Origin: Octopus sinensis
Lineage: Eukaryota
Assembly (NCBI RefSeq): GCF_006345805.1
Contig: NW_021831824.1
Location: 728-64,727, forward strand
Direction of reading: 5' to 3'
DNA length: 64,000 bases
Part shown: positions 15 to 60,129 of the stretch, in pieces
Position numbering within the stretch: position 1 is the first letter of the stretch
How the letters are laid out: the number at the start of each line of letters is the position of its first letter
Notes under the pieces: model-generated
Database searches by the model: none
Told to the model about the DNA's origin: nothing
What the model saw: only the letters and a program-made list of their open reading frames with translations
Position numbers and translations under genes: made by a program

Positions 15-210
15 GTTGGAATTTGCAGGAAAAACAAAAGACGAAGACAGGTGTATAAACAACAAGCAGGTGTATTAGTTTGACGCTCGGGAAGGGGAGA
101 AAGTCTTTTACGTTTCGAGCCTACGTTCTTGAACAGAAAGAAACACAAGGAAATAAATAGAGAGAGAATTAAAAAAAACCTTATGGATTTAGCGGACAAT
201 CATGGCGACT
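15..210 (-). mobile_element. Penelope-like terminal fragment abutting a (TA)n tract, with degenerate hammerhead
   Basis: Reverse complement of the family at 12450-12650 and 42325-42520. Minus strand reads CTTT-CTGTTCA-A-GAACGTAGGCTC-GAAA-CGT-A-AAAG. Confidence 0.55.
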
Positions 211-234
211 GTATATATACATATATACATACAT

Positions 235-880
235 CTAAAAGCACATTAAATGTTCATACAGCACCAGGAGAGAAAGCAAAAGGACAAAATAATCTAGCAA
301 AAATTACTGGATAATTCTGTGATTTTAGAGTCAAGTTTTGGCTGCTATTTCCAGCGTGGTGTTATCTCTTAGATACCCTAAATTATAAGTTTAATAATAA
401 TTATTACCTTTGAAGGTTTTTATCCCCATGCTGACCACTTGATAAGATCGATATTTAAATTAACGATCTTATCCTTATTCATATAAATTTTATATATTTA
501 TTTCGCCATTATATTTACTGCGGTGATATTTCGACCATATCGCACGAGGAGTTATAGGCGGGCAATTTAAACTGGTCGTGTTCATACATGCATATGTATG
601 TATGTATACGTTCGTATATGAAAGTATTCGTAAGTTATATGTATATATATTTGTATTTATGTTACTATCTGTGTATATACCACTGATGAGGCAAAGCATT
701 TCTTATGCAAAGCCAGAAAACCGGGATCTGAAATTATCTAGTAATTTTTTGCTAGTTTATTTAGTCCTTTTGTCTTCTCTCCTAGTGCTGTATAAACATT
801 TAATGTAGTTTTAGAGTCACGTTTTGGCTGCTATTTCCAGCGTGGTGGTATCTCCTAGATAGCCTAAATTATAATTTATA
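235..880 (+). mobile_element. Penelope-like non-coding insertion: inverted 5' piece plus partial tandem
   Basis: 235-316 is the reverse complement of about 733-815. GTTTTGGCTGCTATTTCCAGCGTGGT recurs at 335 and 821. Hammerhead-like motif at 678-733. Flanked by TA-rich tracts, with a second copy at 49948-50265. Confidence 0.6.
678..733 (+). ncRNA. Type I hammerhead ribozyme-like motif (decayed stems I and III)
   Basis: CA-CTGATGA-GGC...GCC-A-GAAA-ACCGGGAT-C-TG. A better-paired copy is at 50195-50252. Confidence 0.5.
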
Positions 881-1407
881 TATATATATATCGATTTCAT
901 ATTTCGCTCCATATCTTTTTCGTGCTACACCTCCAACCCAATGGTTAGCTTTGAAATTGGTTTCATACACCCTTGTTCTACAACTACTGCTACTGCTCCA
1001 TTACAATTATAACTACCACATTTACTAGTTGTTAAAGTGTATCACTGAAGATTTGTCTATAGAGTTCGCAGCCACCACAGAAAGTTACGACGTTTCTATG
1101 CCTTTTTTCTATCTTTGATCGCTTTATTTACATAGACGTATTCGTATTTGTATACGAAGCGTCGTCACTTCCGATGCTAGTTCTGAACTCTATAAAAAAT
1201 CTGAAGAGATACACTTATAGATAAAAATATCGCACTACTAACACAAAAGCAAGGTTCAATATTGACTCATAAACCTTTAATATATTCTTGATAGTACATT
1301 ACGCATGCGAAACTAAATACTCTGACCTTACAAGTAAATAACAATTACTAAGTACCAATTATCACCATTGCTACCAAAATTACCAACTACGACTACTAAT
1401 AAATTAT

Positions 1408-1626
1408 AATGGTTTCAAATTTTGTCACAAGGCCAGCAATTTTTGGGGAGGTAAGGTAAGTCGATTACATCGACCCCACTGTGTAACTGGTACTTAATTT
1501 ATCGATCCCCAAAGGAGGAAAGGCAAAGTCGACCTCGGCGGAATTTGAACTCAGAACGTAGCAGCAGACGAAATGCCGCTAAGCATTTCGCCCAGTGTGC
1601 TAACGAATCTACCAGCTCACCGACTT
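1408..1626 (-). mobile_element. tRNA-derived SINE with Nin/Deu-like central domain (family N)
   Basis: B-box-like GAGTTCAAATTCC and core GTCGACTTTGCCTTTCCTCCTTTGGGGATCGATAAATTAAGTACCAG on the minus strand. Many copies in the window. Confidence 0.75.
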
Positions 1627-1786
1627 AATGATAACAATCATACTATTACCACTACTACTGCTGCTGCTGCTGCTACTACTACTACTACTACTAATAATAA
1701 TAATAATAATAATAATAATAATAATAATAATATAATAATAATAATAATAATAACAATAATAATAATAATAATAATAATGATAATAA

Positions 1787-2062
1787 CGGTTTCAGATGTT
1801 GGCAAAAGACCAGCACTTTCAGGTGATAAGTCGATTGCATCGACCCAGTACTCAGTTTGTACTCATTTTATCAACCACGAGAGTATGAAAGGCAAAGTCG
1901 ACTTCAGCTGTGTTTGAACTCAGAACATAAACACTAGCGAAATGCCGCTAAACATTTTCCCGGCGTACTAACGATTCTGACAGCTCGCCGCATTATTGTT
2001 TCAAACTCAGGCACAAGGCCAAGAATCTTTAAGGGGAGCGGGTTAGTCGATTACATCGACCC
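1787..2062 (-). mobile_element. Family N SINE plus adjacent partial copy
   Basis: Same core and tRNA-like head as 1408-1626, next to (AAT)n. Confidence 0.7.
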
Positions 2063-2233
2063 CAAATATAAAATATTTCTGTTGACAGCAGTATTAAATT
2101 CATTTCCCGATGGTTACACAAGTAAAGCCACTTCAGCTGACACTGATACGTTATTATTTTAACGACTCTGGGGAGTTGCAAAGGAAAACCAACACCTACA
2201 TAGAAGAACTCAACTACACGTAAACATAGTCAT

Positions 2234-57099: not shown

Positions 57100-57533
57100 A
57101 TGTGTGTATATATATATACATATACATATATATATACATACATATATATATACATATATATATATATACATATATATATTATATATATATACATATATAT
57201 ATATATACATTATATATACATATATATATATATACATATATATATGTATATATATGTATATATATATATATATATATATATATACATATATATATGTATA
57301 TATATGTATATATATATATATGTATGTATATATATATGTGTGTATATATATATATATATATATATATATATATGCATATATATATATGTATATATATATG
57401 TATATGTATATATATATATGTATATATATATGTATATATACATATATATATATAATACATATATATATATACTATATATATATATATATATATATATATA
57501 TATATATATAATATATATATATATATATATATA
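57100..57533. repeat. (TA)n-rich microsatellite
   Basis: Direct inspection. Confidence 0.95.
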
Positions 57534-57634
57534 GAAAGTTATCCAAACGTGAAAACACAAAGAAAACACAACAGCGCGAGGACGTGGAACAAGTATAGTG
57601 TTATTGGACGCACAGGAAGGAAGAAAGAAGGAGG

Positions 57635-57669
57635 ACTTAACGTTTCCAGCGGAGCTCTTCGTCAGAAAC
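57635..57669 (-). ncRNA. Minimal hammerhead motif (CUGACGA core) inside a Penelope-like fragment (about 57535-57740)
   Basis: GTTT-CTGACGA-A-GAGC(TCC)GCTG-GAAA-CG-T-T-AAGT. The closing pair of stem II is mismatched. Confidence 0.5.
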
Positions 57670-59127
57670 ATAGGAAGAGGATAGATCCAAGGAAGGGAAG
57701 ACGGCGGGGAAAAAAATCGCCAACGATACACACGCGGTACAAAAGTGTCCAAAACGTTGCTTTTTCTGGAAACGGAAAAATAGTTTCACCATTCCATTGC
57801 AAACCCGTTTGACAATTTTTTATATCTTGATATCTGAAACAGCTGGAGATACGTTAGTTTGACCAAAGGATCTGGCTATTGCAAGCAAAATTAATATTGT
57901 AAAAACGAATTTGGCCAAATTTGGACATACGACAGTTTAACATAATAGCAACGATATGTATATATATATTATATATATATATATATATATATATACATAT
58001 ATGTATGTATTCATAGATACTAATATATACATGCATATATACATATACACACACATACCTCTATATGTATGCTTGAAGGACAGTTGTTCCTTTTAATAAT
58101 TGTTGTTAATGATTATATATATATATAATACTAATACAATTGTTCGTTTGTTTTCCACCTGCCTTCGTCTTTTGTTTATTTCATAAAGCTTCCCGTTAAT
58201 ATATATATATAGACGCATATATATTATATATATATATATATATATATATATATATATATATATATACATATATATAACACCACACTATATACACCACACA
58301 CACATACACCACACACATACATACATATATATATATATATATATATATGGATCAAAATAATTAGATTCTGGCGTGATGCTAGTCGTCAGCCAATTTTCAT
58401 ATGCATATAAACTCTCACCGTCACCGCTATCATCAGTTCCAACACAAAGACCATTTATACTAAAGCCAATACAATTAATGCCATTATCAACTCATCACTT
58501 CTCATTGACCAACAAGAATAGCAACAATAATATAAACAATAAAACCAACTTCATCTGAAATAACAGAAAACAATTTCAGGAGATAATGTGGAACCCTGGT
58601 GTATCTTTAATGTGGAATGTAAAGTCTTTGAATTTTGGTCAATAAGATGTCTTGAAACTAAACAACTGCAACAATAGAATAAGCAGAATAATATGACCAC
58701 TGCCAACAACAACAATACTTCCATCATCGTCATTGGTATCATCACCGATATCAAGACCAATACACCCAACACTACCACTAGTTCCCACTCCAACTTGTGA
58801 ATAATCAACTGGCAACAATGATAGTTTCAGCATGATAATAATGCCTGTAGCTACCTATTCTGTATGTCATGGCAGCATGGAGTGAGTAGAGTGTGCAACT
58901 TTTTATGGATCAAATGAGAGGTACAAGGAGAGTAGTGCCCTTGAACCTCATTTCCCTTCTTACATAGATGGGAATAAGAAAATAATGTTTTATTCTCAAA
59001 AAATAGTTGATGTTACGTTTGCTACATATCTGTTAAAGATAATTATTGATCGCCGCCGCTATTGGATTTGCCCACAATTATAGATGTTTGCAAGTAAGCC
59101 ATCAAGTGGAACTGAAAGTTGTGGTGG

Positions 59128-59360
59128 GGGAAAGAAACAGCAAAATGATTGCAGTGGATATTAAACTTGATGTTTTAAAAAGGTTTGATACGAGAGAAGA
59201 AAAGTCAGCGACATTGCTAAAACAGGAAAGTTTGCAACGTCTACAGTGAGAACAACAGAGAGAATATTAACTCAATACCTCCAGAAGTGTCTCCGTCAAC
59301 TGACAGGAACTCTTTTTGGAAAGTGTAATGTGATGCTTAAACTGGAACGGCTCTTGTTTT
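59128..59360 (+). mobile_element. Tigger transposase N-terminal (CENP-B-like HTH) remnant
   Basis: KMIAVDIKLDVLKRFDTREE, then ATSTVRT and KLERLL in other frames. Confidence 0.55.
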
Positions 59361-59829
59361 TTTCTCTCTCTAGTTTCAGCTCAGAGCTGCGGCCATGTTG
59401 ATGCACCGCCGTTTTGCTACACTGTTATTACTAAGAGCCTCCTCTAATATGTGGCACTTGGTGAAGCATGGAGTTAGATATAGCTACCCTCATTTGCACT
59501 CATTTGGGAATCTCGACAGGAAGAGGTCCAGCTTTGATTTATAAACACCTACATCTACTTTGTGGAAGTTCCTCGGACTCTTCGGGAGAATATTAAAAAG
59601 CTGTTGGCCCTTGAAACCCAGGCGTGTGCAGGAATAAAAAATATACGGTCACGCTGTGTTCCTGACTCTACAAGGTTTCCACAAGCAGAAAGAAATTCAA
59701 AACATATTGTGGCCCTTGAAAATGATGTAGTGTTTCAAAAGTCATATATATATATATATATATATATTATATATATATATATATATATATATATATAATA
59801 TATATATAATATGTATGTATAATTACGTA

Positions 59830-60129
59830 TATGCACTTGCATAGCGAGTGACTTGATCTGAGATCGATATGCACTTGCATAGCGAGGATTTGATCTGATT
59901 CTGAGATCGTGTGCTGGAATGAAAACAGTTGCAGCGTGGAAGGTGTTTATAAGTGATTTAAGAAACACACAAAAAAAACCGTTAGATTCACTTCAACATT
60001 TAGATTTAATTTGTCCGCGGTCTCAAAGCGACGAAAATATTTTGACAAATTAAATTTAAATGTTGAAGTGAATCTAATGGTTTTTGTGTTTCTTAATGGC
60101 TTATAAACACCTTCCACGCTGCAATTGTT
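59830..60129. mobile_element. Fold-back copy of the G3-C8 hammerhead family in (TA)n
   Basis: Arms 59924-60015 and 60044-60129. The spacer is the 3' half of the hammerhead (GCGAC-GAAA-ATATTT-TGAC). The terminal ATGCACTTGCATAGCGAG is duplicated. Confidence 0.75.

Follow-up and report, generated by a model that had tools for sequence, protein, structure and literature searches.

Hammerhead-bearing repeat families in an Octopus sinensis genomic window as probable ends and derivatives of Penelope-like elements

Minimal type-I hammerhead ribozymes are a described feature of Penelope-like elements (PLEs), and it is with these elements that we compare the repeats found in a 64,000-nucleotide stretch of the Octopus sinensis genome (NCBI RefSeq assembly GCF_006345805.1, contig NW_021831824.1, positions 728 to 64,727 of the forward strand; hereafter the window, numbered from its first letter). 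Hydra-1_Obim, a Hydra-clade PLE of Octopus bimaculoides, carries a hammerhead and has a preference for (TA)n (Craig et al. 2021; PMC8557442); this paper was the sole match to a literature search joining hammerhead, Penelope-like and octopus, and a second source, in which octopus PLEs are annotated, does not contain the word 'hammerhead' (PMC13282606). The PLE hammerheads of metazoans are minimal, with an extra base after position 9, a palindromic stem III and low activity as dimers (Cervera and de la Pena 2014; PMC4209133). For the Poseidon element PAc of Anolis, the tail has been tied to two start sites of the reverse transcriptase (RT), and reads at the cut site were absent in Anolis (Frangieh et al. 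2024; PMC11167929). Finally, the animal non-LTR (long terminal repeat) retrozymes are AT-rich head-to-tail units devoid of open reading frames (ORFs), each unit holding a single type-I hammerhead (Cervera and de la Pena 2020, PMC7229834; Li, Clavereau and Pollet 2026, bioRxiv 10.64898/2026.07.22.740005).

The original prediction for the window described about six families of non-coding, hammerhead-bearing insertions associated with (TA)n tracts, with an unseen autonomous partner. Its core, a retroelement system with PLE-related minimal type-I hammerheads and a TA preference, is upheld. We recognize eight families, A to G and P; B, C, D, E and P are very probably the hammerhead-bearing 3′ terminal repeats (pseudo-LTRs, pLTRs) of PLEs, with A and G as ORF-less head-to-tail units that likely lack autonomy and depend on the same machinery. 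The system is already known, both structural classes of hammerhead and the (TA)n preference being in print, including for the Octopus Hydra element (PMC8557442; PMC4209133); new here are the PLE-end families of the Hydra and Neptune types and two likely non-autonomous derivatives, largely ordinary apart from unusual cores.

Coding sequence upstream of the hammerhead units

In a host genome of 2.72 Gb, first-look searches returned 2486 candidates for A, 5045 for B, 2339 for C, 966 for D, 939 for E, 1437 for F, 348 for G and 87 for P, figures to be read as minima rather than as copy numbers; the best-scoring 30 loci were read per family (L-numbers denote genomic loci). A check proposed with the original prediction was to extend the families 5′ toward Penelope RT and GIY-YIG frames. 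Longer genomic copies indeed reach GIY-YIG coding sequence upstream in B, C, D, E and P, and RT sequence too in D, E and P; in B and C, the endonuclease (EN) end alone was encountered. The partner thought to be unseen is therefore at hand, in that five families are the ends of GIY-YIG/RT-coding PLEs and one EN remnant lies in the window itself.

Coding sequence lies directly above the D unit in 9/30 loci. At L241, an open frame of 634 codons holds RT motifs, a CxCX5C linker (CSCRNKELC) and GIY-YIG, and ends about 250 nt above the hammerhead core; L241 and L242 both have the organization of an EN+ PLE, with RT followed by a C-terminal GIY-YIG. L128 has the repeat, a 5′ untranslated region (UTR), an ATG and the RWK and DKT motifs (RMRWK, FSDKT), after which a deletion leads into the following repeat. 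The D protein has 537 database relatives, the best of them 52% identical, and CxCX5C is present in 117 of the 120 listed; a search of PDB sequences with the same protein gave nothing significant. D is a young family, its best matches being 98-100% identical. For P, RT and EN fragments were found in L246-L248, where CxCX5C alone was observed of the Hydra motifs. Within the window, the C-terminal remnant of a Hydra-type GIY-YIG endonuclease (16938-17273, minus strand; tblastn E 4e-9) sits about 240 nt above the hammerhead of the P terminal repeat (16437-16733, minus strand, a profile match with a long stem II and a core at 16693 that here has C3A). The earlier statement that no RT or GIY-YIG ORF is present in the window thus holds for intact ORFs, but not for this remnant.

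Judged by their motifs, D and P appear to be Hydra-type, fitting the clade definition of PMC8557442. D shares with Hydra-clade PLEs the RWK, DKT and CxCX5C motifs, the C-terminal GIY-YIG, the (TA)n preference and a 7-nt palindromic stem III; the latter (ACTC-A-GAGT) is identical to that of Penelope-3_HM, and the printed protein of Hydra-1_Obim looks close to the D protein by eye, unaligned. It differs from them as a distinct young family with C at core position 4, and P is older, with its long stem II (PMC8557442). L263 (block position 16272-18992) also holds a Hydra-type PLE that is nearly full-length; its endonuclease is preceded by a long insert of low complexity, its 3′ UTR is long, and no hammerhead was recognised within the 650 nt read. 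Beside the D insertion at L245, PIF1-like helicase fragments (L245:7381-8999, minus strand) are present, which we take to be Helitron-like.

For E, 22/29 of the other loci fetched by the EN region have the E repeat downstream, and RT motifs or frames were found in L361, L362 and L372; a protein search with a 120-residue E fragment found no longer relatives. A 25-nt word upstream of C has 473 exact matches in the genome, and L407 and L408 cross a TACA-rich UTR of about 1 kb into a GIY-YIG frame related to that of E (225 codons in L407, about 1 kb upstream). Long copies of B cross a CA-rich UTR, also of about 1 kb, with EN remnants in 9/30 loci, two of which were the sources of the query. The Neptune linker, CX2-5CxxC, which is common to Nematis also, takes the form CX4CxxC before YIGET in E and C; the B remnants are degenerate. 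By this linker and by other motifs, B, C and E would be of the Neptune type, and we assume from motif likeness that they belong to Neptune and not to Nematis. F resembles B, its CA-rich extension being present in L339, L340 and L277, and is probably, like B, an end of the Neptune type (see also below).

Hammerhead folds, cores and insertion pattern

The window has about 35% GC, with 22% masked as short tandem repeats, and general repeat detection was dominated by microsatellites. A strict type-I descriptor found three complete folds, whereas 30 block shuffles gave 0.03 on average (again 3 against 0.03 with one core mismatch allowed, and 4 against 0.5 with two). With a second descriptor, the three complete folds compare with 0.05, and a maximum of 2, in 100 shuffles; in an 800-kb sample made of sixteen 50-kb genome blocks chosen beforehand, five folds compare with 0-2 in 10 shuffles. 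The original prediction was to fall if similar folds were equally common in shuffled sequence; the excess of 3 over 0.03-0.05 in the window speaks otherwise, and the core and three stems of the hammerhead are present above chance, the core departing from the consensus in B (U6), C (G3-C8) and D (C4). A scan of the window against Rfam had no hammerhead family among the best 150 of 545 matches, which were microRNA (miRNA)-like and microsatellite-driven.

All 11 sites named at first lie inside repeated units with a family-level type-I hammerhead, but five of these copies are damaged and the one at 60016 is without a complete fold. The initial grouping into six families holds; two more, G (core at 12931) and P, had been overlooked, giving eight in all. 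The family core is fully kept at six places. One is the A copy at 49966-50264 (minus strand, core 50246), which has a 3′ tail and a TA tract (50288-50358) on its 5′ side; the other A insertion, with core 683, is damaged in stems I and III (318-877, plus strand; see below). The B piece at 12240-12661 (plus strand) comprises part of the CA-rich 3′ UTR and the terminal repeat, with an intact core, CTGTAGA, at 12527, a stem I of just 3 bp and TA adjoining its 3′ end. Further B copies are a unit at 3-210 (minus strand; nhmmer 182-3, E 1e-41, the 5′ extent coming from repeat reading), whose core from 136, first placed at about 105, has G8C; a terminal repeat at 42322-42528 (plus strand) with a core CTGTCGA at 42395, damage in stems I-III and a TA tract on the 5′ side; and a fragment without a hammerhead at 58130-58181 (plus strand, profile match). 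The C terminal repeat at 31083-31284 (minus strand; strict descriptor and profile) has an intact G3-C8 core at 31262, and that at 6286-6488 (plus strand; profile match and copy parse) has its core, GTGAACA, at 6307 with G12A. The site at 60016 belongs to an inverted pair of 5′-truncated C pieces (59825-60129; 59867-60015 on the minus strand, 60015-60129 on the plus strand), in which the first half of the core is absent and neither member has a whole hammerhead. Family D is represented by the terminal repeat of the young Hydra-type PLE (32646-32823, plus strand; intact core CCGAAGA at 32669, TA at the 3′ end) and by a short inverted copy (32533-32650, minus strand) that stops at the +94 site with TA adjoining and whose intact hammerhead, with core 32627, had also escaped the first reading. 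An Rfam match to mir-9 above threshold at 32612-32684 coincides with this D inverted repeat and is hence no miRNA. The E terminal repeat, of the Neptune-type PLE (38613-38815, plus strand; intact core 38672), adjoins a TA tract at 38812, and the F unit (57539-57738, minus strand; core 57665, with C11.1G here) adjoins with its 3′ end the TA tract 57107-57533. Finally, G is present as a portion of its head-to-tail unit of about 345 nt (12891-13130, plus strand, profile match).

The core layout is common to the eight families though their stems differ. The core is CTGATGA in A, E, G and P and CTGACGA in F; that of B is CTGTNGA, with U6 kept and position 7 variable (CTGT start in 23/35 copies of the listed classes), that of C is GTGAACA in 33/39 copies, and that of D is CCGAAGA in 35/39. 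As predicted, stem III is short and palindromic or nearly so, the exception being the non-palindromic GAAC of E, and there is an extra nucleotide, after A9 in B, C, E and F (in E, an A in the window copy and a G in most others) and before G12 in A and D. The former arrangement matches metazoan PLE hammerheads of the Neptune and Poseidon types, which likewise have a nucleotide between A9 and G10.1, a G10.1-C11.1 pair, a stem III of 2-4 nt, mostly single dispersed copies of truncated PLEs, and opposite-strand pairs; the natural covariant reported there is U3-A8, and here we find instead a family-wide G3-C8 (C) and U6 (B) (PMC4209133). Known core variants also include A6C, of low activity, along with U3-A8 (PMC3088659). 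The family-wide G3-C8, U6 and C4 cores are possibly new: no published natural G3-C8 or A6U core was found in the literature searched, a search to which the work of Lunse et al. 2017 was external. That work reportedly describes PLE hammerhead variants that cleave as dimers, and it may already cover these core variants.

About a dozen additional, unrelated hammerhead families with a palindromic stem III were noticed in the DNA flanking the loci read (L047:2281, L102:1137, L032:911, L055:2419, L128:898, L202:1990, L207:780, L290:8115, L327:9360, L402:2347 and L083:3090); that at L083 is a relative of D with changed stems and U4 as in the consensus.

By profile search, the window yields 19 pieces and the 800-kb sample 23. 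As the window served to define the families, it is over-represented; a rough extrapolation from the sample gives tens of thousands of pieces genome-wide. Their 5′ ends are staggered and their 3′ ends sharp; A, C and D each have two such 3′ ends, and the tail between them measures about 60 nt in C and D and about 90 nt in A; inversions together with two 3′ ends were seen in C, D and E. Copies with an inverted 5′ part number, per 30 loci, 12 in A, 1 in B, 15 in C, 15 in D, 6 in E and 3 in G. At L104:1971-3214, seven short C repeats stand head-to-tail with TA runs between them, all stopping at the short 3′ site, and similar stacks are present in L108 and L197. TA follows the 3′ end at 24/27 loci in D, 33/39 in F, 34/49 in B, 15/36 in A and 9/35 in C, and TATATA directly follows the D end in 33/35 copies; in the random sample, TA adjoins 8/16 pieces against a background of 5%. 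The claim that most units abut TA is thus borne out strongly for D, B and F, and weakly for E, G and P (see below). PAc resembles these families in its two 3′ ends set apart by a tail, its AT-rich targets and the retention of an uncleaved hammerhead; our families differ in their tails of about 60 to 90 nt and in that the D hammerhead lies above the start codon, which that of PAc overlaps (PMC11167929).

Drawing on published PLE biochemistry, we suppose that GIY-YIG would nick AT-rich DNA and that RT would start at one of two internal sites below the hammerhead, giving the two 3′ ends, and would usually stop early, leaving ends of 200-300 bp. The hammerheads, of predicted activity, would be slow to cleave, either by pairing as dimers through the palindromic stem III or by the help of protein, and would process tandem transcripts. 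Most insertions would derive from uncleaved RNA, because sequence is kept on both sides of the cut.

Head-to-tail families, possible cleavage and rival readings

In A and G, the sequence above the hammerhead is the family's own downstream sequence. The A insertion at 318-877, with TA at its 3′ end and an inverted 5′ piece of A before it (228-317, minus strand, profile match), spans 1.15 units of the 486-nt period, 318-391 repeating 809-874; such continuity of tail and body is found in this copy and at five other loci, and the longest stop-free stretch of the monomer is 93 codons. The period of G is 337-349 nt; at least 7/29 loci are longer than one unit, and one of 30 (L234) spans about two units and two hammerheads, the second decayed. 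No A locus with two hammerheads was found among 30, so that two intact hammerheads, the criterion for active retrozymes in bioRxiv 10.64898/2026.07.22.740005, are present in none of the 30 A and 30 G loci, and in these same loci the 5′ extensions reach no ORF. Both families bear marks of PLE insertion, namely the inverted 5′ copies and fixed 3′ ends, and their stems III, of 6-7 nt, are Hydra-like. Thus, A and G are likely to be non-autonomous, retrozyme-like derivatives of PLEs. They share with the non-LTR retrozymes an ORF-less, AT-rich head-to-tail organization with one type-I hammerhead per unit; they differ in that their hammerheads are minimal and Hydra-like rather than canonical, that their copies are mostly dispersed, close to one unit long and clearly marked by PLE insertion, and that the 486 nt of A exceed the described 170-400 nt; accumulation as circular RNA, a retrozyme trait, would be a prediction for A and G (PMC7229834; bioRxiv 10.64898/2026.07.22.740005). 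No run recorded as RNA was listed for family A. The contigs of four possibly-RNA runs from a related organism cover A in proportion to the shape of its genomic copies and cross the 877-392 junction; since this junction also exists in DNA, they are uninformative on expression or circles.

Alternatively, A and G could be ends that derive from autonomous PLEs now rare or extinct, in which case the head-to-tail form would go back to one internally deleted master and the hammerhead would be irrelevant to their spread. We hold this to be a serious though clearly less probable possibility. An internally deleted D copy with the order repeat, ORF start, repeat is known (L127/L128), no long arrays were observed (the largest being about two units for G and 1.15 for A) and a PLE hammerhead was dispensable for insertion in vitro (PMC11167929). 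However, the core of G is better conserved than its flanks (0.96 against 0.83, p<0.001) and its stem II covaries among diverse copies, with 16 cells changed on both sides, a number matched by 1/500 shuffles in a control that ignores relatedness; this points to selection acting on the fold in numerous source copies. Stem covariation in the family consensi, on which the original prediction had been staked, is thus seen in stem II of G, and clear signs of selection are restricted to this family, that for F being marginal (p=0.04); a cruder earlier contrast of core and flank was inflated by the unit edges.

Several observations weigh against the reading of these families as PLE ends and derivatives with ribozymes. 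The core is no better kept than the flanks within A, B, C and E (p 0.15-0.31), as expected of dead copies from few masters. Activity may be lowered by U6 in B, C4 in D, G3-C8 in C and by a U17 cleavage site, and both ribozyme cleavage and expression of these families are predictions from sequence. The clades were assigned from motifs rather than from a tree, Pfam had no match on the PLE proteins and fragments, no ORF was met upstream of the CA-rich extension of F, and the absence of ORFs in A and G applies to the best 30 loci each, beyond which rare ORF-bearing copies could exist. Adjacency to TA is weak in E (6/32), G (4/32) and P (0/24, counted from where the profile stops, which may differ from the true 3′ end), and an unrelated short interspersed element (SINE) adjoins TA at one end in 29/54 sampled copies. 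Since the family counts differ and this SINE also adjoins TA, the preference depends on the family and is not restricted to these units.

The 5′ ends of the copies were also considered as a possible footprint of cleavage. By hand count, 12/28 TA-flanked copies of F start within 4 nt behind the predicted cut (p 1e-4 against a uniform distribution); the count covers the first 100 of 289 pattern matches, or 29 distinct loci, from which one internal deletion was dropped. Among the same 28 copies, 7 start at the A-run of GAAA, and the pattern favours near-anchor starts and samples upstream of the anchor only. Across families, 7/49 ends fall at 0 to +5 (p 0.006), with approximate ends, an interval chosen post hoc and one end read by hand. 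In both counts the excess can be explained by microhomology with the TA flanks, and we regard this weak, possibly new, excess just behind the predicted cut as a lead only. A speculative proposal, which we think rather unlikely as a whole, is that PLE hammerheads are active in vivo, cleaved RNA being the template for a minority of insertions, which would start just behind the cut; that A and G are circular passengers of Hydra-type enzymes linking PLEs and retrozymes; and that the G3-C8 and U6 cores are active, which would widen the hammerhead consensus.

That the hammerheads are relics without activity, or folds arising by chance in AT-rich repeats, we consider improbable. Minimum free energy (MFE) folding does not single out the motifs (7/8 z-scores between +0.1 and -1.3), most copies in the window are mutated, and 8/9 Xenopus dimers assayed failed to cleave (bioRxiv 10.64898/2026.07.22.740005); yet the complete folds outnumber those in shuffled sequence, eight families with distinct stems share the core layout, and the unrelated hammerheads in the flanks have a palindromic stem III, a feature not fully required by the descriptor. 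Least probable by our estimate, and hardly credible, is the view that all families are independent non-coding retrozymes replicating through circular RNA with a separate, unseen autonomous partner, since, although most copies are 200-300 bp without an ORF, the best-match sets of C and F have fairly sharp 5′ ends and both A and G form head-to-tail units, the sharp ends vanish gradually when longer copies are included, and B, C, D, E and P each extend across a 3′ UTR of their own as far as coding sequence, which refutes it for these five.

Other features of the window and significance

A 12-copy, 43-bp tandem array at 17192-17707 is an amplified piece of PLE endonuclease coding sequence, from the 5′ part of the remnant at 16938-17273, at the 5′ end of this truncated insertion, possibly produced by repeated template jumps of RT. 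Near-perfect inverted repeats beside TA tracts, with no recognised hammerhead, are present at 10696-10827, 38171-38437 and 60361-60519; these may be 5′-inverted ends of other PLE families or miniature inverted-repeat transposable elements (MITEs). Decayed retroelement coding remnants comprise a gag-like frame of the zinc-knuckle type (8835-9442, plus strand) and the C-terminal part of an RT of the long interspersed element (LINE) type (44572-45933, plus strand). Highly abundant SINE-like families occupy 1426-1628, 3915-4126, 4163-4329, 19106-19660 and many other places, 19106-19660 being a tandem of three 182-bp copies of one such family; the SINE mentioned above as adjoining TA is one of these families. 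A short interstitial TTAGGG-type repeat lies at 48876-48911.

The families described here add octopus-type PLEs to the known picture and show that PLE groups differ in which of the two hammerhead classes they carry. In earlier work, a PLE hammerhead was dispensable for insertion in vitro and cut-site reads were absent in Anolis (PMC11167929). Family D is young and nearly intact and is therefore a practical substrate for the biochemistry of the Hydra clade. If the excess of 5′ ends behind the predicted cut holds, the tens of thousands of copies would make cleavage in vivo testable from DNA alone. A and G, in turn, would give direct support, from their insertion signatures, for the mobilisation of retrozyme-like units by PLEs, hitherto argued from co-occurrence and from likeness to pLTRs.

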